Source: a virus
Lineage: Duplodnaviria; Heunggongvirae; Uroviricota; Caudoviricetes
Length of the DNA stretch: 12,971 nt
IMG/VR virus record: IMGVR_UViG_2718218128_000005
Strand: one strand, 5' to 3'
Part shown: piece after piece, positions 208-12,971 of the stretch
How positions within the stretch are numbered: position 1 is the first letter of the stretch
How the letters are laid out: each line of letters opens with the position of its first letter
Notes under the pieces: model-generated
Databases searched by the model: none
Told to the model about the DNA's origin: nothing
What the model saw: only the letters and a program-made list of their open reading frames with translations
Position numbers and translations under genes: made by a program

Positions 208-792
208 TTACTCCCTGACAGGGTTCGTAGGCCACTCAATATCAGGTGCAGTTGATGTATCAACACGGTTCAGCAACACCCGATACTTTTTCCAGGCTTC
301 CAGCAATGAGGTTTCTTCCTCCGTTGCGATTTCCAGATCTACAGCATCCTGAAGTGGCGCAATATGCTCACTGGCTACCTGCATCAGGCTGTTTTTTATT
401 TCTTCCGCCTCTCGGATCCGGAACAGTTTTTCTGCTTCTGCATCTTTCACCCAGGCTGTGCCGTTCCACTTCTGAAACTCCCCTTCCGGCGATAACCAGG
501 TAACATTTTCCGGTAACGGACCGAGTTCAGAAATAAATAACTCGTCCCCTGACGCTACGTCATAAACCGTTTTACCCCGATGGTCTTCAACGAGATGCCA
601 CGATGCCTCATCACTGTTGAAAACAGCCACAAAGCCAGCAGGAATATCTGGTGGTGCAATATCGGTACTGTTTGCTGGCAGACCTGTATGAGGCGGAATA
701 TATGCATCACCTTCACCAATAAATTCATTAGTTCCGGCCAGCAGATTATAAATTTTTATGGTCCGTGCTTGTTCACTCATTCTGAATGCCAT
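208..792 (-). CDS. tfa: Tail fibre assembly protein (lambda Tfa family), apparently intact, 194 aa
   Basis: The translation looks like lambda/lambdoid Tfa proteins from memory. ATG at 792-790; its start overlaps the stop of the upstream tail-fibre frame (TAATG). Confidence 0.88.
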
Positions 793-1067
793 TATGCAAG
801 CCTCACAATATAGTTAAATGCGATGTTTTTGACGGTGTTTTCCGCGTTACCAGCAGCGTTAACGGTGATGGTGTGTCCATGTGACCCTATCGCAACGGAG
901 TGCGTATGAGCACCAATATCCGAATAGAACGATATTGTAAATTCACCTAAATACGAGGCATTGCTGTAGTTGAATTGCAGTACTGTATTAGCCTGACAGT
1001 GACAGAATACGATATTGACTCTGTCACTTGTGAAATGGTCAGAATGGTTAGCAGTTATGGTGATCAG
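792..1067 (-). pseudogene. Side tail fibre (Stf-like) C-terminal remnant, about 91 codons with no start codon
   Basis: My translation of the minus frame 1067..795 is open and ends ...[30 protein letters not shown], which resembles lambdoid side-tail-fibre C-termini. The frame is closed by a stop at 1068-1070 and contains no Met, so the gene is 5'-truncated next to ybcW. Confidence 0.7.
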
Positions 1068-1270
1068 TCAACCAACAGGGAATAATCCTTCGTATTCTTA
1101 TCGTGCTTTACTAACGCGGCCTCAATTGCCCTGAATGCTTCCAGAGATACTTGATGTTCTATACATGCAATTACAACATCAGGGTAACTCATAGAAATGG
1201 TGCTATTAAGCATATTTTTTACACGAATCAGATCCACGGAGGGATCATCAGCAGATTGTTCTTTATTCAT
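1064..1270 (-). CDS. ybcW: Small prophage protein of unknown function, 68 aa (YbcW-like)
   Basis: 68-aa ORF with ATG at 1270-1268. Size, position and divergent orientation relative to ybcV match DLP12 ybcW as I recall it. Confidence 0.6.
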
Positions 1271-1555
1271 TTTGTCGCTCCATGCGCTTGCTCTTCATCT
1301 AGCGGTTAAAATATTACTTCAAATCTTTCTGTATGAAGATTTGAGCACGTTGGCCTTACATACATCTGTCGGTTGTATTTCCCTCCAGAATGCCAGCAGG
1401 ACCGCACTTTGTTACGCAACCAATACTATTAAGTGAAAACATTCCTAATATTTGACATAAATCATCAACAAAACACAAAGAGGTCAGACCAGATTGAAAC
1501 GATAAAAACGATAATGCAAACTACGCGCCCTCGTATCACATGGAAGGTTTTACCA

Positions 1556-1966
1556 ATGGCTCAGGTTGCCATTTTTAAAGAAATATTCGATCAAGTGCGA
1601 AAAGATTTAAACTGTGAATTGTTTTATTCTGAACTAAAACGTCACAACGTCTCACATTATATTTACTATCTAGCCACAGATAATATTCACATCGTGTTAG
1701 AAAACGATAACACTGTGTTAATAAAAGGACTTAAAAAGGTTGTAAATGTTAAATTCTCAAGAAACACGCATCTTATAGAAACGTCCTATGATAGGTTGAA
1801 ATCAAGAGAAATCACATTTCAGCAATACAGGGAAAATCTTGCTAAAGCAGGAGTTTTCCGATGGGTTACAAATATCCATGAACATAAAAGATATTACTAT
1901 ACCTTTGATAATTCATTACTATTTACTGAGAGCATTCAGAACACTACACAAATCTTTCCACGCTAA
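1556..1966 (+). CDS. ybcV: DUF1398-family prophage protein, 136 aa (YbcV/YdfO-like)
   Basis: The track ORF 1433..1966 contains an internal ATG at 1556 preceded by GGAAGG, which gives 136 aa ([13 protein letters not shown]...). Size and position match YbcV. The upstream ATG at 1526 and the track start at 1433 lack a Shine-Dalgarno sequence. Confidence 0.75.
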
Positions 1967-2256
1967 ATCATAACGTCCGGTTTCTTCCGTGTCAGCACCG
2001 GGGCGTTGGCATAATGCAATACGTGTACGCGCTAAACCCTGTGTGCATCGTTTTTAATTATTCCCGGACACTCCCGCAGAGAAGTTCCCCGTCAGGGCTG
2101 TGGACATAGTTAATCCGGGAATACAATGACGATTCATCGCACCTGACATACATTAATAAATATTAACAATATGAAATTTCAACTCATTGTTTAGGGTTTG
2201 TTTAATTTTCTACACATACGATTCTGCGAACTTCAAAAAGCATCGGGAATAACACC

Positions 2257-2550
2257 ATGAAAAAAATGCTACTCGCTACTGCGCTGGCCCTGCTTATTAC
2301 AGGATGTGCTCAACAGACGTTTACTGTTCAAAACAAACCGGCAGCAGTAGCACCAAAGGAAACCATCACTCATCATTTCTTCGTTTCTGGAATTGGGCAG
2401 AAGAAAACTGTCGATGCAGCCAAAATTTGTGGCGGCGCAGAAAATGTTGTTAAAACAGAAACCCAGCAAACATTCGTAAATGGATTGCTCGGTTTTATTA
2501 CTTTAGGCATTTATACTCCGCTGGAAGCGCGTGTGTATTGCTCACAATAA
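2257..2550 (+). CDS. borD: Bor outer-membrane lipoprotein (serum-resistance moron), 97 aa
   Basis: The translation matches lambda Bor as I remember it, with a lipoprotein signal peptide and lipobox LITGC. It sits opposite and convergent to Rz, as in lambda. Confidence 0.95.
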   Translation: MKKMLLATALALLITGCAQQTFTVQNKPAAVAPKETITHHFFVSGIGQKKTVDAAKICGGAENVVKTETQQTFVNGLLGFITLGIYTPLEARVYCSQ

Positions 2551-2556
2551 TTGCAT

Positions 2557-2582
2557 GAGTTGCCCATCGATATGGGCAACTC
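2557..2582. terminator. Palindromic hairpin between convergent bor and Rz
   Basis: GAGTTGCCCAT-CGAT-ATGGGCAACTC: 11-bp perfect stem with a 4-nt loop, overlapping the Rz stop codon. There is no strong U-tract on either strand, so terminator function is uncertain. Confidence 0.3.
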
Positions 2583-3043
2583 TATCTGCACTGCTCATTA
2601 ATATACTTCTGGGTTCCTTCCAGTTGTTTTTGCATAGTGATCAGCCTCTCTCTGAGGGTGAAATAATCCCGTTCAGCGGTGTCTGCCAGTCGGGGGGAGG
2701 CTGCATTATCCACGCCGGAGGCGGTGGTGGCTTCACGCACTGACTGACAGACTGCTTTGATGTGCAACCGACGACGACCAGCGGCAACATCATCACGCAG
2801 AGCATCATTTTCAGCTTTCGCATCAGCTAACTCCTTCGTGTATTTTGCATCGAGCGCAGCAACATCACGCTGACGCATCTGCATGTCAGTAATTGCCGCG
2901 TTCGCCAGCTTCAGTTCTCTGGCATTTTTGTCGCGCTGGGCTTTGTAGGTAATGGCGTTATCACGGTAATGATTAACAGCCCATGACAGGCCGACGATGA
3001 TGCAGATAACCAGAGCGGAGATAATCGCGGTTACTCTGTTCAT
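2582..3043 (-). CDS. rzpD: Rz i-spanin (inner-membrane spanin subunit), 153 aa
   Basis: The translation matches lambda Rz as I remember it. The true ATG is at 3043-3041, overlapping the R stop (ATGA); the track ORF begins 4 codons earlier at a GTG. Confidence 0.93.
2641..2823 (-). CDS. rzoD: Rz1 o-spanin lipoprotein, 60 aa, embedded in the +1 frame of Rz
   Basis: [24 protein letters not shown]... has lipobox VVGC and a proline-rich segment; it matches lambda Rz1 as I remember it. It lies entirely inside Rz. Confidence 0.9.
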
Positions 3044-3537
3044 TGCTGACCCCACAAACAGATTTCACGCTCAATCTCACGACGAGTCATGAGACCTTTC
3101 CATTGCTTACCGCCAGCATATGTCCAGCGACGTAGCTGATCACATGCGCCTTTGATATCGCCCTGGTTTATTTTGCGAAGAAGCGTCGATGTTCTGAAAT
3201 TGCCAGCACCCACGTTGTAAACGAATGAGTAAAGAGCGCCGCGCGTTGTTTCCGGTATATCGACTTTGATGTACGGGTTAATTTGTCTGGCGACAGTGGC
3301 AAGGTCTTTATTCAAGAGTGCTTTGCATTCTGCTTTGGTATACGTTTTACCGAGCATGATGTCTTTTCCTGTATGCCCGTGACATACAGTCCATACACCA
3401 ACAATATCTTTATATGGTATGTAGCTGACACCTTCCAGACCATCGTCACCACTCGGACCAGTGATGAGCACAGACGCTATGGCAACAGCCCCACCACCAA
3501 TAGCAGCTGCTACAGCCTTGCGTAATGATGGCGACAT
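3040..3537 (-). CDS. rrrD: Phage-21-type endolysin with N-terminal SAR domain (T4-lysozyme-like, GH24), 165 aa
   Basis: Gly/Ala-rich weakly hydrophobic N-terminus ([20 protein letters not shown]) followed by an E...D...T catalytic arrangement ([18 protein letters not shown]). Its ATG overlaps the S stop (TAATG). Confidence 0.93.
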
Positions 3538-3752
3538 TATTCACCTCTCGCAGCCTTACGCTTATCTTCTTTAATCTTGAAATAAAGGTTTGTCAGGTAC
3601 GTCAGCAGGCCAAATACCAGGCTACCCAGCACTCCAATTGCCGCCCACTGTGAGGGCGTGACTTTATCTAGCAGCTGTAAAAACCAGTACCCGGCACTAC
3701 CTGCTGAGGTGCCATAGGCGACACCCGTTGTTAACTTATCCATGGATTTCAT
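3537..3752 (-). CDS. essD: Pinholin S21-type holin with dual-start motif (MKSM), 71 aa
   Basis: 71 aa with two predicted transmembrane segments and Met1-Lys2-Ser3-Met4, the classic antiholin/holin dual start of phage 21 S. GAGGTGG Shine-Dalgarno sequence upstream. Confidence 0.93.
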
Positions 3753-3861
3753 AACCCCACCTCGCAGACAAAGCGGGTGTAAATTGAGGGAATACTACGA
3801 AACGTAACAGACTCGGAGTCAGTGAATAACTCAGGTATTGGGTTATCAGCTAATATCGAGA

Positions 3862-3897
3862 CTCAAAAAATGGAAAAACCCGCTCGACGGCGGGTTT
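3862..3897 (-). terminator. Intrinsic terminator on the minus strand about 110 nt upstream of S; candidate late-operon tR'-like terminator
   Basis: Stem AAACCCGC(3876-3883)/GCGGGTTT(3890-3897) with a 6-nt loop. On the minus strand it is followed directly by TTTTTCCATTTTTTG. Confidence 0.5.
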
Positions 3898-4325
3898 AAG
3901 CTGTGTGACGAAGTAACCACTCTTAACAGCATAACCAATTTTTTACGTACGTAAACCACTAAATGATATTTGCGAGAATGCTACCGAGTATTGAAAACAC
4001 CACTACAAATACATAAGCAAATCTCAACAAATAACCAACAAATAATTTCCAGTGTTATTTTTAGCCGATTTAAATTGAACCTTCAAATTATAGAGCACTT
4101 ATAAATAACAGCCGTTAATATAAATTGGCTAATAGATTTATTTTTATTCAGCCAAGAGCTATAAATAGGATTCGATAGAAAAAAGTTCAGATAAAAATAG
4201 AGATCTACTTCACAAATCAAACGAGAAACCAAAACTTACATCTTGAAATAATCACATTGATTAGATGAATATTTATCGCGCAGTGACATCATTTTTTAAT
4301 AATAGTTCAAAAAAAAGGGCTCACG

Positions 4326-5423
4326 ATGAAAAAATTAACAGTGGCAATTTCTGCTGTAGCTGCATCAGTACTGATGGCGATGTCTGCTCAGGCAGCTGAA
4401 ATTTATAATAAAGACAGTAACAAGCTGGATCTGTACGGGAAAGTTAATGCCAAGCACTACTTCTCCTCTAATGATGCAGATGATGGTGATACTACTTATG
4501 CCCGTCTTGGCTTCAAAGGTGAAACCCAAATCAACGATCAACTGACTGGTTTCGGTCAGTGGGAATATGAATTCAAAGGCAACCGCGCTGAATCTCAAGG
4601 TTCCTCCAAAGACAAAACCCGTCTTGCATTTGCAGGCCTGAAATTCGGTGACTACGGCTCAATCGATTACGGCCGTAACTACGGTGTAGCATACGACATC
4701 GGTGCGTGGACTGACGTTCTGCCAGAATTCGGTGGCGATACCTGGACCCAAACAGATGTGTTCATGACTGGTCGCACCACTGGTGTTGCAACCTATCGTA
4801 ACAACGACTTCTTTGGTCTGGTTGATGGTCTGAACTTTGCTGCTCAGTACCAAGGCAAAAACGATCGTAGCGATTTCGATAACTACACTGAAGGTAACGG
4901 TGATGGCTTCGGTTTCTCTGCTACCTATGAATACGAAGGATTCGGTATCGGTGCAACTTATGCGAAATCTGATCGTACCGACACTCAAGTTAATGCAGGG
5001 AAAGTTCTTCCTGAAGTATTTGCTTCCGGTAAAAATGCAGAAGTTTGGGCCGCAGGTCTGAAATATGACGCTAACAACATTTACCTGGCCACTACCTATT
5101 CTGAAACCCAGAATATGACTGTATTTGCTGATCACTTCGTTGCTAATAAAGCCCAAAACTTCGAAGCTGTTGCACAATATCAGTTCGATTTCGGTCTGCG
5201 TCCGTCCGTTGCTTACCTGCAATCTAAAGGTAAAGATCTTGGAGTATGGGGCGATCAGGACTTAGTCAAATATGTTGATGTAGGTGCAACCTATTACTTC
5301 AACAAAAATATGTCTACTTTCGTTGATTACAAAATCAACCTGCTTGACAAAAATGACTTCACTAAAGCACTCGGTGTAAGCACTGATGACATCGTTGCTG
5401 TAGGTCTGGTTTACCAGTTCTAA
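4326..5423 (+). CDS. nmpC: Outer-membrane general porin, NmpC/Lc (OmpC/OmpF family), apparently intact, 365 aa
   Basis: Signal peptide ending [10 protein letters not shown], general-porin-like sequence and the terminal ...VGLVYQF. It lies between Q and the lysis genes on the opposite strand, as nmpC does in DLP12. Confidence 0.93.
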
Positions 5424-5596
5424 TCTGATTACGAAAAAGATATGTTGCGGGAGGCGTTGCCTCCCCAACATATAAGTGGCTCCCTCAAGCCACTTCCTTT
5501 AGAAGCACAACCTTGCTTCTAACTATATAAACCTTCTGTTATATATTACCCTTTATTTTTGGGGGCGTCTCAACGCCCCATTTTTAATAATTTTTA
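5424..5596 (+). ncRNA. ipeX: Candidate IpeX-like small RNA / structured 3' region downstream of the porin gene
   Basis: Three successive hairpins (5449-5465 GGGAGGC/GCCTCCC; about 5471-5492 AAGTGGCT/AGCCACTT; about 5500-5517 GAAGCA/TGCTTC) plus the terminator at 5562-5596. I recall a porin-inhibitory sRNA (IpeX) mapped just 3' of nmpC in DLP12; the boundaries here are guesses. Confidence 0.25.
5562..5596 (+). terminator. Intrinsic terminator on the plus strand (porin / 3' RNA terminator)
   Basis: Stem GGGGCGT(5562-5568)/ACGCCCC(5573-5579) with a 4-nt loop, followed by ATTTTTAATAATTTTT. It would also shield Q from antisense read-through. Confidence 0.5.
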
Positions 5597-5612
5597 GTAA
5601 ACAATTGGCATA

Positions 5613-5996
5613 TTAATTAGAGTTATTAACAACGATATCCATCTCTAACCGGATATCTAATGCCATTAACATCCCTTCAATTATGCCCTCAGCCTTCTGT
5701 AACCTTTTCCCGATATAACCATCAGAGCAGCAATGCTTACCTGCCAGTGACATGAATGTCATACCGACTACATAATAATCTACTAATAAATCGTGCAAAT
5801 CGCTGTTGTTCTTTTTCAGACGGGCCATGCACCCGCAAATAATCATCGCGTCATCGTCACAACATTGCGGGCGAGATTTTACTTTTGAAGTAATTAATCC
5901 CTTAAAACCGGCGGCAATGGACGACCAGGTCACATCTTCATGATTATTAGCCGCCCACGCTCCCCAACGCTCAAGAACCATCTGAATATCACGCAT
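5613..5996 (-). CDS. quuD: Late-gene antiterminator Q, 127 aa
   Basis: ATG at 5996-5994 with GGAG upstream gives 127 aa ([18 protein letters not shown]...), the size of DLP12 QuuD. The track ORF starts 5 codons earlier at TTG. Confidence 0.9.
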
Positions 5997-6081
5997 CAAC
6001 TTACTCCACAAAAATCAGACCAGAACGCCAATTACAAGCAAAAATCAACAAAACAGTATTAGTTGATTGTTATCTCTGACT

Positions 6082-6219
6082 TCATACTCCTGCTCCTGTC
6101 AGGGTTTTGGCGTAATTCTTCAGTATTCGGTAATCGGTCAAAACAGAACCGGGGAAACGATATAAGCGCAGATGCCCCCAGCGGTGGCGAAGAAGTTCTG
6201 CCATATAAAACTCAAACAT
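6082..6219 (-). CDS. ylcG: Small nin-region ORF, 45 aa (YlcG-like)
   Basis: My translation from ATG 6219-6217 to stop 6084-6082 is [45 protein letters not shown]. Its start overlaps the rusA stop (TGATG), and its position between rusA and Q matches ylcG. Confidence 0.45.
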   Translation of the reverse strand: MFEFYMAELLRHRWGHLRLYRFPGSVLTDYRILKNYAKTLTGAGV

Positions 6220-6581
6220 CATTCATTCCCCATTTCGGTGATGGTCAGTTCCAGCCTCCCACCTTTGGTAACAGGCATCTTCACAACGCGGTAATCAACG
6301 ACCTGAGCATCATCCAGCCAGAAACCTGCTTTGGTGAGTGCGTCAAAAGCGGCTTTTTGCAGATTATCCAGGTCACGGCGACGGCGATCCGGCATGTGGC
6401 ACTCAATACGGATTTTCACTGGCATAGCCAGGCCGATATCCAGCATTGCGTTTTTAATGATTCGGGTGACGTTATCGCGGTATGCCTGCCCTTCTGCGCT
6501 GATGTGCGTGCGCCCGCGATTATGGCGGTAATAGCGATTATTGCTCGGAGGCCAGGGTAATGTGATGCTGTAGGTATTCAC
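6219..6581 (-). CDS. rusA: RusA Holliday-junction resolvase, 120 aa
   Basis: [18 protein letters not shown]... matches RusA as I remember it. GTG start at 6581-6579 overlaps the ybcO stop. Confidence 0.93.
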
Positions 6582-6868
6582 GCCTTAATAACCCCCTCTT
6601 TCAGCCAGATAACCTGTGTTCTCGCCATACCTTCCAGCGCGCATTCTTTTGCATATGCAGCATCGACAAAATGTGTGCGGCGGTCGATTTCGTCGTGGCA
6701 GGCAGAACATGCAATGGTGGCAATCAGGTCTGGCGGTTTGATACCGGTACCGCACAATCCAGCCAGCCGGATATGTGCCAGTACAGACGTTTCAGAATTG
6801 CCATTACATACGCCAGGGATTCTTACCTGGCATTCCCGACCACGCGCTGCTTTTCTCAAATCAGCCAT
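6578..6868 (-). CDS. ybcO: YbcO-like nin-region protein (DUF1364, putative nuclease), 96 aa
   Basis: ATG at 6868-6866 preceded by AGGAGG gives 96 aa ([23 protein letters not shown]...). The track ORF starts 13 codons upstream. Confidence 0.85.
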
Positions 6869-7031
6869 GATTCCTCCTTGCTGCCAGTCGCAACCATTTT
6901 TTATCAACCAGGCTAGCGGTATATCCGAGCAGTGTTGGTATTTCGGATGGCTTCGGCTCAGGCTTACGCTTACGACGATTTGATACTCTGTAGATGTGTC
7001 CGTTCATGACACGAATAAGCGGTGTAGCCAT
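6861..7031 (-). CDS. ninE: NinE, 56 aa
   Basis: My translation (ATG 7031-7029 to stop 6863-6861) is [56 protein letters not shown]. It is below the track's size cut-off; its start overlaps the ybcN stop (TAATG) and its end overlaps the ybcO start. Confidence 0.8.
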   Translation of the reverse strand: MATPLIRVMNGHIYRVSNRRKRKPEPKPSEIPTLLGYTASLVDKKWLRLAARRNHG

Positions 7032-7486
7032 TACGCCTCCTGCTTGTCACGGAGCAGCTGGAACTCGCAGCTCTGCGGAATAGTCAGGTGGCAGCCAATA
7101 TTCACCGCCCAGGCTTCAACCTTACACAGGAAGACATACATCTCTCCGGTATCAAGATCGGAGGTATGGCGTAACGACTGGATAGTGGTGATATCACCGG
7201 TTACGACATCAACCAGGTCTTTGGTTTCATAACCGAGATATGTGTGTTTGAGAGCATCTTTTACCCAAGCTGGAGTGGCGAACGTTTTACCCCTGTTGAT
7301 GAGGTATTCACTGATTTCGCTGTACCACATGTGGCTGAGTGCATTCTGGGAAAGACTGCGTTTCTCACGCCACGGTTTAAGCACCATGCGAAAGCATTTG
7401 CCCTCCTCCAGATAAGGCTGGATCTGCCGACCGATAGCGGTGAAGTTACCGCGATGTAATTTGATGCCATCTTGTGGGAGATTCAC
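7031..7486 (-). CDS. ybcN: YbcN-like nin-region protein, 151 aa
   Basis: 151 aa with a GTG start at 7486-7484 preceded by GGAGGTG. Size and position match DLP12 ybcN. Confidence 0.85.
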
Positions 7487-7682
7487 GCTTCACCTCCGCA
7501 GAGGTCAAACGCTGGATGCAAAAAATCGCAGGTGCATCTCTGCATCTGTGAAGGGAGAAGAGAGTTTGGATTGTATGTGCGCATAAACGTCCCCGTTTAG
7601 CGCAGAAGTCACCGGAGTTGTTCAGGCTCCGATGACATGATTATGGCAAAATGATTATGTAAAATCAAAAGCCAAAAAACAA

Positions 7683-8612
7683 TTATGGTTTATTTTCTAG
7701 CTCTGATTTTTTGAAAGCTTCTATCAGACGATTAGCATCTTCTGTACCACCAGGAAGCACGTTTGATTTTTTAAGAATATACGGTGGGAACTTTGTGGTT
7801 AAATATTCATGCTTAAACCATCTACGAAACTCTGACAATGCAGAATCAGGATAGGCATTAATGATCTGAGGATTGGAACTTGCCTGAAGAAAATCTTCAG
7901 GGTAATAATGCTCACAGTCTACTCTTTCTCCAAATTCTGTTGCTAACCCCTTTGCTTTCCAGTGACGCGCCCAGCAAGAACCAACACTGCCATCAGGTAC
8001 GGTATGCTGATTAATCGCTAATCCAGCATTGATGAGATCTACCATCATACCTGCAATTTCATTAAATATAATGAAATACCCATCAGGTATGGTTCCCTTA
8101 TCTTTTAATAAAGATACTCTGTCATGGTAATGCCTCCACGGGTCCTCCGGTTGATATTTTAGCGCCTCGTATATAAATGTCTTGAGGCCTTTTTTAGCAA
8201 GCTCTCTGTAAGATCTAATTGCAGTCTCACTTTCTGCTTGTTTTGCTTCAAAGGCATAGTATTCAAGTATAGCCATGCATACAACATCTGGATAAGCATG
8301 GTACTCAACACCATTTCGAATTATTGGTATATAAAGTTTTTCATCTGTAAAACCTTCATTAAGAAGATATGTACCAATAAAAGTCATTCTTCCTTTTTTG
8401 AAAATACCGTTCTCAACGGATTGAGCCCACTCATCGGTAATTTCCTTGATTCGCAAACGCTGAACACCACAAACATTTGCCAACCCATTCTGAGTAAGGT
8501 ACGGAATTCCGTTATCGAGTACCCCCATTTCTATACCGTTAATGACAGCCTCTTGCTTAACATCTAAGTCTAAAGGTATGGATCTGAGGGAGGTAGTTCT
8601 CTGTTGTGCCAT
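7683..8612 (-). CDS. AT-rich cargo gene of unknown function, 309 aa; candidate anti-phage/abortive-infection protein with a possible KilA-N/APSES-like N-terminal domain (BstA-like architecture is a hypothesis)
   Basis: Long ORF with ATG at 8612-8610 preceded by AGGA at 6-nt spacing (the track ORF starts 5 codons earlier at TTG). The N-terminal stretch VINGIEMGVLDNGIPYLTQNGLANVCGV resembles the DG-x-x-W-V-N-A-T-x-I-L-K-A-A-G core of KilA-N/APSES domains. The gene looks markedly more AT-rich than the flanking phage genes. The confidence given is for a real CDS, not for the functional call. Confidence 0.7.
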   Translation of the reverse strand: MAQQRTTSLRSIPLDLDVKQEAVINGIEMGVLDNGIPYLTQNGLANVCGVQRLRIKEITDEWAQSVENGIFKKGRMTFIGTYLLNEGFTDEKLYIPIIRNGVEYHAYPDVVCMAILEYYAFEAKQAESETAIRSYRELAKKGLKTFIYEALKYQPEDPWRHYHDRVSLLKDKGTIPDGYFIIFNEIAGMMVDLINAGLAINQHTVPDGSVGSCWARHWKAKGLATEFGERVDCEHYYPEDFLQASSNPQIINAYPDSALSEFRRWFKHEYLTTKFPPYILKKSNVLPGGTEDANRLIEAFKKSELENKP

Positions 8613-8718
8613 TTTTGATCCTATCAATTTGAATTCATTGAAAAAATTAGGTGTTCCCTATGCATTAGAACACTCATCATAGTAACCCCACTCGTTTGTG
8701 AAAAAAACTAATTTCACA

Positions 8719-8744
8719 ATCAGTTAACTCTCAAAATAACTGAT
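8719..8744. promoter_or_regulatory. Perfect 8-bp inverted repeat with a 10-bp spacer in the AT-rich leader of the 309-aa gene; candidate operator
   Basis: ATCAGTTA(8719-8726)-N10-TAACTGAT(8737-8744), about 110 bp upstream of the start codon. Confidence 0.3.
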
Positions 8745-8816
8745 ATTCATACTCTCGCTATCCCATATATAGACATCCTTGTTTTAATACAACACTCATG
8801 GCTGGCGGCTATACTC

Positions 8817-9134
8817 CTAACAGATTTGACGCAAATACGGCAATACTCGACTCCACTTATCATCCTGCCACGGCTGAAGTTTTACATGTGCCGTTTCTCG
8901 GACGAGGATTGCTCGCGCTCTGTTGAGTATCTGGGGATATTCTTGCTCGATGGAAGTGAAGTGACCAGCTTCACCATGCTCCGCATCCTGAAGAAGATGA
9001 GTAACGTTCTGGTAGGCAATTAACATCACATTCCCTGCTCGCCATAACCAGGCGAGTGTGCAAAGTTCGTTATCAGTGAATTGTTTTGTGATTGGGGATT
9101 GTTGAACTGCTAGAACGAGAACGCCAGCATCCAT
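8817..9134 (-). CDS. Hypothetical protein, 105 aa, upstream of the 309-aa cargo gene
   Basis: ORF bounded by a stop 3 codons upstream of its ATG, with a weak AGGGA Shine-Dalgarno sequence. No family recognised. It looks more GC-rich than its AT-rich flanks, so it could be a remnant or a real small gene. Confidence 0.4.
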   Translation of the reverse strand: MDAGVLVLAVQQSPITKQFTDNELCTLAWLWRAGNVMLIAYQNVTHLLQDAEHGEAGHFTSIEQEYPQILNRARAILVRETAHVKLQPWQDDKWSRVLPYLRQIC

Positions 9135-9245
9135 TGGCAGTCCCTATAGTAAAACCATAGCTCAGGACGCTTCGTTCAGGATAGATAATTTTATTGTACT
9201 TACCTAACTTTCTTACTATAGCACGGTTGAAAAAGTGATTATTAC

Positions 9246-10772
9246 TCAAAAATAAACCTCACCATCAACCATATATTTGAGAGTACTTATCGCCTGCTGG
9301 GCGGATATTGTTTTCATTAAAGGATAGTGTTTAAAAACAATGCCATTCATAAAATAGATATCACAGGTTTTATTATCTGTATTGATTATGATTTTTTCGA
9401 ATGTTTTATAGGCAAGTGTACGACATAGCTCTCGCCCATTTTTACTGGTTAAGTCAATAGCATGAAAATCACCAAGTGAGCTCACCGCTTTACTCTTCAA
9501 AGTTTTTAATGATACAGAAGCCCTTCGTAATTCCTTATCTAATACTCTGATTTTTTCTGCTATAGCGGTAACTTCAGGCGCAACAGATAATGCAGCAATT
9601 AAATTATTAATTTTCATCTGGAGCTCAATAATTTTCAACTCTAAAGTTTCATTAGCATCTTTCTTGTTTTCAACTGGTTGGATTTTACTACAATTAAAAA
9701 GCAACTCATTAATGATATTATAATCAACCAAATCTCTCTTTATTGATGGCCTGTCACATCGATGCAGTCTTCTCATCGGACAAACATAATAGCCATGCAA
9801 ACTTCCAGATACCGCATGAACAATCATGGTATTACCACAAGCCTCGCACTTCATAACTGTTCGAAGTAGATTTATCAACATAGGGTTTTTGCTACTATTG
9901 CTAATACCAAAAGGTGCCAACCGAATTTCCTGCACAGCGTAAAACAAATCATCTGATATGACTCTGGGATAATAGCCAGCGATTTCACTTATTCCTTTAC
10001 CTCTTGCACGATATGAAGGTACGCATATACCTATCAGAGCTTTATTCGCTAATAATTTTTCAATTACAGAAGGTCCCCATGCACTTTCTTTTCCTGAGAA
10101 ATTCTTTACAGCATGATCATTTAAATACTTGGCTATTGCATTCAATGAGCGCCTTTCCATCCTGAGTTTAAAAATTAGCTCAATAGTTTTCACCCTGTCG
10201 GGGTCTGGAACAAAAGCCGTTCTTTTGTCATCTAAGGAGAGCCATCTCGGACAAGACGCCGTCATAATCGTGCCTGACTCCAGTGCATCCTGCCGTTTTT
10301 TCTTCCATGATAATTTAACCCGACTTGACTTTATCTCGCTTTCTTCATTTGCCCTTTGTGCTATAAGTATGGCTTTTATTAATGAATATGGATCATTCAA
10401 AGAGTCAATATTATAGACTGTATTATCGCAAAGAGTTATAACATCAATACCGTGATTCAAAATCAATTTCAGACGCTCAATCGCTTCACCGACTTTTTCT
10501 CTTGAAAGTCTGTCCAGACTTTCAACTAACAATGTAGTTCCTGGCAATATATAACCATGCTCTATAGCATCTAAAAATTCCGAAAAAGCTCCTGATTGTG
10601 CATGCTTTCCTTTGAATGCACTTAATCCTAAATCTTCATATGTTATGGTATCAAGATAATAATCACTATTTACCTTTAACCATTCAGCAATAAGTCTTCT
10701 CTGTCGGTTTAATGAGTCGCCAGACATCTGACCTGGTGATGAAAATCGCATATATGCTATGGCTTTTTTCAT
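9246..10772 (-). CDS. ybcK: Large serine recombinase (resolvase/invertase N-terminal catalytic domain plus recombinase and zinc-ribbon regions), 508 aa (YbcK-like)
   Basis: N-terminus AIAYMRFSSPGQ... carries the serine-recombinase catalytic Ser motif, and there is a Cys cluster (CEACGN...YYVCP...HRC). AGGTG Shine-Dalgarno sequence; 508 aa equals the DLP12 YbcK length. Confidence 0.9.
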   Translation of the reverse strand: MKKAIAYMRFSSPGQMSGDSLNRQRRLIAEWLKVNSDYYLDTITYEDLGLSAFKGKHAQSGAFSEFLDAIEHGYILPGTTLLVESLDRLSREKVGEAIERLKLILNHGIDVITLCDNTVYNIDSLNDPYSLIKAILIAQRANEESEIKSSRVKLSWKKKRQDALESGTIMTASCPRWLSLDDKRTAFVPDPDRVKTIELIFKLRMERRSLNAIAKYLNDHAVKNFSGKESAWGPSVIEKLLANKALIGICVPSYRARGKGISEIAGYYPRVISDDLFYAVQEIRLAPFGISNSSKNPMLINLLRTVMKCEACGNTMIVHAVSGSLHGYYVCPMRRLHRCDRPSIKRDLVDYNIINELLFNCSKIQPVENKKDANETLELKIIELQMKINNLIAALSVAPEVTAIAEKIRVLDKELRRASVSLKTLKSKAVSSLGDFHAIDLTSKNGRELCRTLAYKTFEKIIINTDNKTCDIYFMNGIVFKHYPLMKTISAQQAISTLKYMVDGEVYF

Positions 10773-10954
10773 GGTGACACCTGCTAACGTATGCTTCTAT
10801 AAACCTTAGTGGTGAGATATAATTTTTGTTTAATTTTTATTTAAAAAGACAATTAAGGTCACATTATCTTGAATATACAACAATAATCGTATTGCAATTT
10901 TCTTACGCCATAATCTTGAAAGCACAAAAGAATACATAAAAAAATAAAGACATT

Positions 10955-10997
10955 AACAAAAAGCATAAAACGAGGCTCATATAAATATAAGAGCCTC
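10955..10997 (-). terminator. Intrinsic terminator downstream of emrE (minus strand)
   Basis: Stem GAGGCTC(10972-10978)/GAGCCTC(10991-10997) with a 12-nt AT loop. On the minus strand it is followed by GTTTTATGCTTTTTG. Confidence 0.4.
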
Positions 10998-11028
10998 CAT
11001 ATTTTAGTCGTTTAGAAACAAATTATTT

Positions 11029-11361
11029 TTAATGTGGTGTGCTTCGTGACAATAAATTAATAACCAACACACCGGCACAAATCAACATCATGCCTATAAT
11101 GGCTGGCAGGTCCAGCCGTTGGCCGAAAAATCCCCATGACAGTAAGCTAATCAGGACAATACCGACTCCTGACCAGATAGCATAAGCAATCCCTGTAGGA
11201 ATATAAGCCAGCGTCTGAGCTAATAACCAGAATGATGCACAATAACAAATAATTGTACCAACAGATGGCCATAACCGTGTAAAACCTTCTGAAAACTTCA
11301 TTAAGGTTGTACCAATGACCTCTGCAAGTATTGCACCACCAAGATAAATATAAGGGTTCAT
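11029..11361 (-). CDS. emrE: EmrE small multidrug resistance (SMR) efflux transporter, 110 aa
   Basis: From ATG 11361-11359 the translation MNPYIYLGGAILAEVIGTTLMKFSEGF...LLSRSTPH matches EmrE as I remember it, with four transmembrane segments. The track ORF starts 18 codons upstream. Confidence 0.95.
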   Translation of the reverse strand: MNPYIYLGGAILAEVIGTTLMKFSEGFTRLWPSVGTIICYCASFWLLAQTLAYIPTGIAYAIWSGVGIVLISLLSWGFFGQRLDLPAIIGMMLICAGVLVINLLSRSTPH

Positions 11362-11428
11362 AGCATATTCTTTCCTGTTCAAACTGGAGAGAATTGTACT
11401 ACAGTTTGAAATCAACTCACCTGTTTCA

Positions 11429-11731
11429 TCATTGTGTACCCATTGATGTTCTTTTATATACCCTCAATACGCGTTTCATCGCGGCACTCTGGCGACACTC
11501 CTTAAAAATCAGATTCGTGCTCACCTTTCCTTCCCGTTCTTCTCTGGTAGCGAACCGGTAATACACCGTTCGCCAGACCTTACCATCAACGACCAGGATT
11601 CCTGCCCGCGCCATTTTAGCCGCAGCCTGATTTATGCTGGTTACGGTTGCGCCTGTTACCGCGGCAACGTCCTGTGCACAGAAGCTCTTATGCGTCCCCA
11701 GGTAATGAATAATTGCCTCTTTGCCCGTCAT
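11429..11731 (-). CDS. ren: Ren (lambda Ren-like), 100 aa
   Basis: MTGKEAIIHYLGTH...KVWRTVYYRFATREEREGK... is near-identical to lambda Ren as I remember it. Its ATG overlaps the P stop (ATGA). Confidence 0.9.
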   Translation of the reverse strand: MTGKEAIIHYLGTHKSFCAQDVAAVTGATVTSINQAAAKMARAGILVVDGKVWRTVYYRFATREEREGKVSTNLIFKECRQSAAMKRVLRVYKRTSMGTQ

Positions 11732-12339
11732 ACACTTGCTCCTTTCAGTCCGAACTTAGCTTTAATTTCTGCGATCTTCGCCAGAGCCTGTGCACGATTT
11801 AGAGGTCTACCGCCCATAACAGGAAGTTGTTTTACTGGTTCAGGGATCGCCTCACCACGGTTAATTCTCGCAGTCATATGGACAAGCTCATCTGCGGCCT
11901 TACGGCGTAATTCCGCATCAGTAAGCGCATTGGCCCGCATGTTCTGATACAGGTTGGTAACCAGCCAGTAGTGCGCGTTTGATTTCCACGGATAAGACTC
12001 CGCATCCGGATACAGGCCTCGCTTCCGGCAATACTCGTAAACCATATCAACCAGCTCGCTGACGTTTGGCAGTCCGGCGATAACGGATGCTTCTTCCCGG
12101 CACCATGCAACAAACTGCCCGGGTGATGGCAGAAATGGTCGATTCTGCCGACGGGCTACGCGCATTCCAGCGTTAACCTGTTCCATTGTGGTGATCCCGT
12201 TTTCCCGGAAAGCCAGAACCCACTGGCGGCGGATTTCGTTCAGTTCATTCTGGTCACGGTTAGCCAGGCTCGCCGGGAAAGTTGCCAGTAACTGGCTGAA
12301 CACACCATTGATGATCTGCGCTACCTGCTGTACCAGCGG
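11728..12339 (-). pseudogene. P: Replication protein P (lambda P, DnaB helicase loader), N-terminally truncated
   Basis: The track protein ...FSQLLATFPASLANRDQNE...KAKFGLKGASV matches the C-terminal roughly 190 aa of lambda P as I remember it. The frame stays open upstream only to a stop at 12340-12342 and has no in-frame ATG; the track start at 12303 is a GTG encoding an internal Val. The first ~45 residues of P, and the gene O upstream, are absent. Confidence 0.85.
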
Positions 12340-12971
12340 TCAGAAACAAGCGAGTCAGATGGCTGGAAAAGGAGGAAGCAAAACGCCTTATTGATGAGTG
12401 CCCCGAACCACTGAAATCTGTCGTCAAGTTTGCGCTGGCAACTGGTCTGAGAAAGTCGAACATCATAAATCTGGAATGGCAACAAATCGACATGCAGCGA
12501 CGAGTTGCCTGGGTGAATCCAGAAGAGAGCAAATCAAACCGCGCCATTGGTGTGGCGCTAAACGATACCGCCTGTAAAGTGTTGCGTGATCAAATAGGCA
12601 AGCATCACAAATGGGTGTTTGTACATACCAAGGCGGCTAAGCGAGCAGATGGAACATCAACGCCTGCGGTCAGGAAGATGCGCATCGACAGCAAGACATC
12701 ATGGCTATCAGCTTGTCGTCGTGCAGGAATTGAAGATTTCCGTTTCCATGACCTCAGACACACCTGGGCAAGCTGGCTGATTCAGTCAGGCGTCCCATTA
12801 TCAGTGCTTCAGGAAATGGGCGGATGGGAGTCCATAGAAATGGTTCGTAGGTATGCTCACCTTGCGCCTAATCATTTGACAGAGCATGCGAGGAAAATAG
12901 ACGACATTTTTGGTGATAATGTCCCAAATATGTCCCACTCTGGAATTATGGAGGATATAAAGAAGGCGTAA
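12340..12971 (+). pseudogene. int: Tyrosine recombinase (phage integrase) C-terminal catalytic domain, truncated N-terminally at the junction with P'
   Basis: The frame is open from 12315. It carries ATGLR (catalytic Arg), HDLRHTWAS (H-x-x-R) and MVRRYAHL (catalytic Tyr). Only about 210 codons are present, so the arm-binding and core-binding N-terminal domains are missing. The stop falls at 12969-12971, the window edge. Confidence 0.8.

Follow-up and report, generated by a model that had tools for sequence, protein, structure and literature searches.

What happened at the place where two genes that normally lie far apart in a lambdoid genome now touch, and why did it happen there? The question is raised by a 12,971-nucleotide stretch of tailed-phage DNA (IMG/VR record IMGVR_UViG_2718218128_000005; "the window" hereafter means this whole stretch), in which an integrase gene and the replication gene P run into each other close to the right end. 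The initial annotation, made from the letters alone, read this place as a deletion junction. Here we define its exact ends, follow the same breakpoint through other E. coli prophages and weigh what may have caused it.

Identity of the prophage

Judged by alignment and gene content, the window appears to be the argU-proximal portion of a decayed DLP12-type lambdoid prophage. Our reference is the prophage of E. coli A16 (NZ_CP028758, locus L005), which is apparently complete and intact for this type and in whose numbering the junctions of other strains are given. Window 919-12334 corresponds to A16 12001-23435 in a single alignment with 98.6% identity, and window 12331-12971 to A16 30818-31458 (99.8%), the final 641 bp of intD with one base different. 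The gene order is that of the DLP12 relatives (ybcW, bor, lysis genes, porin, quuD, rusA, ninE, ybcN, ybcK, emrE, ren, P, intD), and Pfam matches were obtained for RusA, the large serine recombinase YbcK, the SMR transporter EmrE and the porin. The last base of the window, 12971, is that of the int stop codon, and in all relatives argU follows 15 bp further on. Two of the intact genes bear on the explanations considered below:

6219-6581, minus strand: rusA, intact, 120 aa; Pfam RusA, E = 1.6e-22
9246-10772, minus strand: ybcK, large serine recombinase, intact, 508 aa; Pfam Resolvase, Recombinase and Zn_ribbon_recom

A second deletion junction, with the microhomology TCCGA and of non-TA type, lies at window 919-923, where the tail-fibre region (window 230-923, matching tail-fibre assembly and tail protein fragments of strain WL164) is fused to DNA upstream of ybcW (A16 12001). 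Compared with A16, the window has lost ylcI, nohD and every head and tail gene at this junction. The tail-fibre assembly gene at the far edge of the remnant is intact (208-792, minus strand, 194 aa; Pfam Caudo_TAP, E = 1.6e-44), and window 1-193 matches the methyltransferase region of WL164. In A16 the tRNA beside int (L005 31474-31551), annotated as a 78-nt tRNA-Gly, has an extra G in the anticodon loop, TTAGGAAG against TTAGAAG in K-12 argU; A16 is the strain with the intact prophage.

Exact ends of the deletion

Three features describe the junction:

12331-12334: junction; TACC, present in both parental sequences and retained once (three-way alignments)
11728-12339, minus strand: remnant of replication gene P, residues 33-233 of a 233-aa protein; stop codon at 11728-11730
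12333-12971, plus strand: remnant of intD, residues 176-387 of 387 and the stop codon

The P homology on the minus strand stops at 12334 and the intD homology on the plus strand begins at 12331. The two genes had been described as meeting within about 30 bp; they do meet, and in fact overlap by the four bases TACC. With a slash marking the join, the P parent reads CTGCTGTACC/TGAGG and the int parent CAAGATACC/AGCGG. Alignment, named in the initial annotation as the way to find the breakpoint and any microhomology, thus gives TACC. Relative to A16, positions 23436-30817 are absent, a loss of 7,382 bp. A chance resemblance is ruled out because the 526 bp of P at the junction are identical to A16 and the 641 bp of int differ at one base. 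The flanks are colinear with the reference, the short repeat is retained once, and neither an attachment site nor, in alignments to relatives, any IS homology lies at the join, as is characteristic of a microhomology deletion.

The deletion and its exact ends can be read directly from these alignments. Very probably, one illegitimate break-and-join event in a DLP12-type lambdoid prophage at argU took out the 7,382 bp, and the junction is its scar. With similar confidence we place the cuts at CTGCTGTA/CCTGAGG in P and at CAAGATA/CCAGCGG in intD. The initial annotation was therefore right: a genuine deletion has joined an integrase gene and a P gene that both lack their N-terminal part, and the two are oriented as one expects in a lambdoid prophage; no full-length integrase reading frame is present and no intact phage aligns colinearly across the join. 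It had not foreseen the TACC microhomology, the strain-specificity of the junction or the recurrent hotspot at its P-side end.

According to the annotation of A16, the missing segment contained the first 95 bp of P, an O-type replication gene (Phage_rep_O) containing the origin, a YdaT-domain gene at the cII position, a cro-like regulator, a cI-like S24-peptidase repressor, a kil-like division inhibitor, gam, bet and exo, five small ORFs, a xis-like fragment and the first 523 bp of intD (codons 1-175). The proposed loss of xis, the recombination genes, cI/cro, cII and O is borne out by this list, with xis as a xis-like fragment and the YdaT-domain gene standing at the cII position; for N, the list does not show the loss directly, because A16 carries no annotated N. 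In all likelihood, the deletion removed the immunity, replication-origin, recombination and excision functions together, so the A16 annotation agrees with the earlier view that this one junction accounts for the lost immunity, replication initiation and excision. Because of the junction the prophage can neither excise, replicate nor confer immunity, which taken alone is routine.

Both gene remnants retain complete domains. The minus-strand frame 12339-11731 covers the entire Pfam Phage_lambda_P profile (1-162 of 162, E = 3.8e-62) and is identical to the A16 P allele across 526 bp. The P-derived DNA ends at 12334, so that the start codon, the first 31 codons and most of codon 32 are gone; an in-frame stop lies upstream at 12340-12342, and the first in-frame start is a GTG at 12303, which opens a 191-aa ORF. 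P is thus not intact, with 95 bp of its 5' end and the whole O gene missing. On the other side, the plus-strand frame is open from 12315, as stated initially, with no stop codon interrupting 12315-12971. Window 12336-12968 spans the full catalytic domain of Pfam Phage_integrase (profile 1-171 of 172, E = 4e-47), its translation contains conserved motifs including RYAHL, and it is 99.7-99.8% identical to intD of A16, K-12, EC06 and FDN-24. The arm-binding and core-binding N-terminal part (residues 1-175) is absent along with the start and promoter of a functional integrase, and there is no in-frame start before the ATG at 12492, downstream of the first catalytic Arg motif (ATGLRKSN). We are confident that the P and intD remnants are two pseudogenes without promoter or start.

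Distribution of the junction

The junction was not found as a one-piece match in 5,426 complete E. coli genomes, and a 30-mer across it was absent from GTDB species representatives and metagenome contigs. A look-up of the 191-aa P remnant returned other junction types and not that of the window. Comparison with other DLP12-like prophages, as the initial annotation had recommended, hence shows a junction that is strain-specific or lineage-specific and not common to the relatives compared. DLP12 was present in 74% of strains in one survey (PMC6379469), and the window's junction is a further member of the well-known class of DLP12 decay. The junctions of the other strains, in A16 coordinates, are:

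K-12: P 23140/exo 28539 and exo 28844/30200, with IS3 in ren
FDN-24: 23233/30216
EC06: 23438/30455
SCZE5 and six others: 23434/30159
WL164: IS3-internal/30159

Two observations were made in passing. A 159-aa C-terminal IntD ORF is recorded in 410 blocks of the assembly collection, and in the ten loci read (L253-L262) intD is interrupted by IS629-like, IS3-family or IS1 ends at A16 30751-30931; truncation of the integrase therefore arose many times by another route. In addition, lambda P sequence occurs on contigs of about 48.4-48.5 kb with about 1x coverage in Shewanella, Pseudomonas, Neobacillus and other assemblies (L231, L238, L242, L245, L250 and others), which look like contamination with phage lambda control DNA.

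A recurrent breakpoint in P

In EC06, SCZE5 and the window, P is broken within 4 bp while the int-side ends differ. The P allele of EC06 and SCZE5 has 30-31 differences from that of the window in 526 bp, the last one 27 bp from the junction, so these are separate events on different phage lineages. We refer to the shared breakpoint as the P-site:

12325-12334, plus strand: retained part of the P-site hotspot; the intact site reads CTGTACCTGA, a 9.8-bit half-site match in a position-weight-matrix scan

Metagenome, IMG/VR and genome contigs were scanned with a 26-mer ending at the P-site TAC. At about 240 of the loci found, P continued normally, and two further junctions at the P-site emerged, one to exo 28163 (L066) and one to tail-like DNA (L048). 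We also looked up the exact 191-aa P remnant, the product expected for truncation anywhere in about 130 bp. All seven truncated loci returned break at the same P-site TA, with partners at 24007 (origin iteron 1), bet 27853, 28842 (twice), 29004, int 30572 and a foreign sequence. Altogether the P-site TA has 11 different partners (24007, 27853, 28163, 28842, 29004, 30159, 30455, 30572, 30818 and two foreign sequences) on five P alleles up to 6% divergent, a count of use that is inflated because the P-site was specifically searched for. The identical junction between the P-site and 28842 was also present in the FORC 064 prophage, which is 5% divergent and not located at argU.

The P-side end is thus a deletion hotspot that recurs with base-pair precision. 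At least ten other, apparently independent deletions in E. coli prophages used the same TA, although those sharing an allele might instead have arisen in successive steps, one nested in the other. Taken as an event, the window's deletion is ordinary prophage decay; the position of its breakpoint is not ordinary. We found no description of such a deletion hotspot in the literature searched. Other sites were reused as well:

28843 (A16): five partners, and the left end of a K-12 junction
28164 (A16): two partners
27239 (A16): two partners
24008 (A16): two partners
30159 (A16): two partners

Nesting also provides the most serious alternative to a single event. An older P-site junction, such as P joined to int 30572 (L271) or to 30455 (EC06), would have been extended by another, smaller deletion that took away 246-660 bp more of int and so gave the junction of the window. 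Over 500 bp the P flank of the window does not differ from those of L267-L272, which bear six other P-site junctions; the partners are all nested, from 24007 to 30818, and a deletion with TAC or TACC as microhomology could turn an EC06-type or SCZE5-type junction into the window sequence. Such a route requires each later deletion to begin exactly at the old junction and still needs a hotspot determined on the P side. EC06 and SCZE5 themselves are not ancestors of the window, given their divergent P allele, and EC06 matches intact P for 6-7 bases beyond its join, as expected only of a direct event. We consider a two-step origin unlikely, and a single deletion remains our reading of the window's junction.

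Two smaller observations concern the site. Locus L264 carries a 1-bp deletion, TACCTGTGG to TACCGTGG, exactly at the P-site, which frameshifts P in an otherwise intact O-P region. Window 12318-12323 reads CTACCT, the complement of AGGTAG, and lies 8 bp from the junction TA; a survivor of replicative killing is reported in which an IS2 inserted in lambda P had duplicated AGGTAG as its 6-bp target (39685-39690; PMC4926192).

A motif that resembles the origin repeats

Nearly all large early-region deletions cross at TA, with at least one end in TACC or its complement GGTA, and the crossing TA typically lies within [G/T]TACCNG. Inside the A16 O-type gene we found five palindromic repeats of 19-21 bp (L005 23992-24107) with the consensus TTTACCTGA-T-TCAGGTAAA, adjoined by an AT-rich stretch (L005 23958-23991). 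They differ from the origin repeats of lambda and presumably form the replication origin of the A16-type prophage. A scoring matrix was built from the ten half-sites of this origin only (TTTACC[T/C]GA) and used to scan 8.6 kb. The P-side end scored 9.8 bits, the fifth best non-origin site in the 8.6 kb, a resemblance in sequence. The int-side end of the window's junction, AGATACCAGC, reached about -5 bits and agrees only in TACC and the sixth-position G. Five ends of deletions rank among the best non-origin matches:

30455 (A16): ATTTACCTGA, right end in EC06
30200 (A16): CCTTACCTCA, right end in K-12
23432 (A16): CTGTACCTGA, the P-site
27239 (A16): CATTACCCGT, left end of two junctions (L218, L152)
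28539 (A16): GTTTACCTCC, right end in K-12

One more junction ends within origin repeat 1. The emrE-ylcJ-ybcK block acts like a cassette, and many prophages with ren-P-O match A16 only from about 22557; a half-site-like sequence, CTTACCTAA (10.3 bits), stands at the other cassette edge near A16 (L005) 20301.

The association tests are post hoc, because TACC was noticed before the origin repeats were found: TACC or GGTA accounts for 11 of the 18 distinct TA ends used, against 19% of TA dinucleotides in the region (p = 9e-5); TACCNG occurs in 10 of 13 used TACC sites and in 12 of 47 unused ones (p = 0.0012); and of the 25 distinct ends, five coincide with one of the 11 non-origin sites of at least 8 bits, where the null mean is 0.12 and the maximum 3 in 20,000 permutations (P < 5e-5). 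Under a pure microhomology model 1.4-3.5% of candidate pairs lie on such sites, compared with 8 of 15 junctions observed. By this sequence comparison, the ends of large early-region deletions cluster at TA in [G/T]TACCNG, which resembles the initiator's putative half-site TTTACC[T/C]GA. An all-against-all survey of junctions in prophages with lambda-type O yielded only small, uninformative indels.

These figures bear on the simplest account, random microhomology-mediated deletion with a common endpoint that is a coincidence or a search effect. A 4-bp microhomology is typical of illegitimate recombination, and the first relatives, EC06 and SCZE5, were found through their resemblance to the window near the junction. 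Randomness is hard to reconcile with 11 partners on one TA, with seven out of seven detectable truncations in a 130-bp stretch at that TA, with an identical junction between the P-site and 28842 in prophages about 5% apart, or with the permutation and microhomology-model tests, and we regard it as very improbable.

Possible causes of the breakage

Our tentative interpretation, which we rate at somewhat below an even chance, is that early-region loss in E. coli lambdoid prophages is non-random and would reflect sequence-specific breakage at [G/T]TA/CCNG, with a dominant site about 95 bp into P and with the initiator as a fork barrier and RusA as the likely agents. A chain of events can be drawn up by analogy. 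In a derepressed prophage that fails to excise, O/P-driven replication would fire in place, and forks might stall at origin-like half-sites bound by the initiator. The prophage's own RusA, acting in trans, could then cut the reversed forks 5' of CC, and the ends ...TA and CC... would be joined through 2-7 bases of terminal homology, TA(CC). Survivors would be cells whose deletion takes out ori, O and the start of P, an escape from replicative killing.

Several published observations touch on these steps. RusA cuts 5' of CC and originates from DLP12 (PMC1636454). Non-excised lambda kills the cell by O/P replication unless replication functions are lost (PMC4926192), and in a model for phage SPP1 the origin-binding protein G38P at oriR stalls a fork and the RusA-like G44P cuts the reversed fork (PMC3485210). 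Both parents of the window carry TA/CC, so a blunt join would be possible. Counting against the RusA step, rusA is reported to be quiescent in K-12 (PMC1636454). A strict RusA geometry also misfits some junctions, for instance K-12 28844/30200, where the TA must derive from one partner. At two P-site junctions (L266, L273) the P allele has its nearest relatives in phages with lambda-type O, whose origin repeats are different, so the present O type may not be required for the hotspot. The full chain, from stalling at initiator-bound sites through RusA cutting and joining to the selection of survivors, is in our view possible but doubtful.

A serine recombinase acting on pseudo-sites, either YbcK or a Pin-type invertase, could make a 2-bp staggered cut at a TA core. 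One TA is retained in about 24 junctions regardless of the orientation of the motif, as a palindromic 2-bp core would give; ybcK is intact 1.5 kb from the junction, and related prophages contain a Pin-like gene. Yet neither the P-site nor 28843 has the dyad-symmetric extended site around TA that such an enzyme would call for, and partner sites have in common only 2-7 bases, the TA core and the one-sided KTACCNG motif. Microhomology varies from 2 to 7 bases as in end joining, the FORC 064 prophage has the same junction with no ybcK nearby, and the edges of the emrE-ybcK cassette are located elsewhere. This makes a serine recombinase improbable. Whatever likelihood is left by it and by stalling with RusA cutting falls to some other sequence-specific cause.

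Least credible is an integrase-promoted deletion between secondary attachment sites, suggested by nine bases (ACCTGCGGC) that the P-site of the L004 allele has in common with argU and rejected once the attachment identity block had been shown to span 47 bases, from the anticodon loop to the 3' end of argU (PMC6379469): no TACC lies inside the block, the nine-base match is outside the anticodon stem-loop and just 8/9 in the window's allele, TA-centred microhomologies of 2-7 bases misfit a 7-bp overlap, and no junction ends at the attachment site.

Further candidates were tried and set aside. As to a hairpin or cruciform at the hotspot, 81-nt DNA folds at the P-site and at 28843 are no better than those of shuffled sequences (z = 0.1 to 2.6). 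Restriction-type cutting at GTAC or GGTACC would meet partner sites with ATAC, TTAC, GTAG and GTAA, which have no common recognition site. For TTAC cleavage of the IS200/IS605 type and TA excision of the IS630/mariner type, and likewise for primase CTG sites and the C(-4) preference of topoisomerase I, either the deleted segments lack conserved ends or the motif misfits some sites. A splice-site-like GG/TA reading is at odds with the K-12 acceptor.

Significance and comparison with known systems

The junction matters more as one case of a reproducible pattern than for itself. If breakage is indeed sequence-specific, with the initiator and RusA as its agents, it would strike the same few base pairs repeatedly in unrelated lineages, and the prophage would itself encode what grounds it. 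If grounding occurs at fixed sites by a defined mechanism, one could predict how fast prophages are domesticated and with what outcome, and the mechanism would be open to genetic testing in O, rusA, ybcK and recB backgrounds. Shared junctions among prophage remnants used as phylogenetic markers would then no longer prove common descent.

The closest known system is DLP12 of K-12, which is integrated at argU, carries the same integrase gene, 99.7% identical over the 641 bp left in the window, and shares the backbone of ybcK, emrE, ren, rusA, porin and lysis genes. It too is without the immunity and replication region and retains a fragment of P. As the initial annotation stated, the arrangement differs. 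K-12 has kept full intD and a 306-bp exo fragment, whereas the window has a truncated integrase; its P fragment is shorter (to A16 23140) than that of the window; and it has two other junctions, TCGTA/CCTCCC and GGGTA/CCTCAC, in addition to the IS3 in ren, against a single junction in the window. In other E. coli, truncation of intD by an IS likewise leaves a C-terminal integrase ORF of 159 aa and costs the prophage its excision, but there an IS629, IS3 or IS1 end abuts int, while the window's junction has no IS.

The RK- survivors of non-excisable lambda fragments resemble the window in outcome. There, killing by the O/P-driven replication of a trapped prophage selects mutants that have lost O, P or ori function, including deletions between origin repeats, and the window's deletion likewise removes ori, O and the start of P, although selection by that route is here our suggestion. 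The lambda mutants arose in the laboratory and for the most part carry point mutations, IS2 insertions or small deletions, and the text covered of that study reports no fixed endpoint of large deletions in P (PMC4926192). In SPP1, the break feeds productive sigma replication and is not known to give deletions. What G38P and G44P of SPP1 may have in common with the process proposed here is the order of steps, an initiator-bound barrier followed by a RusA-family break; on the side of the window the likeness consists of half-site-like ends, a cut 5' of CC and a rusA gene in the prophage, all of it evidence from sequence.
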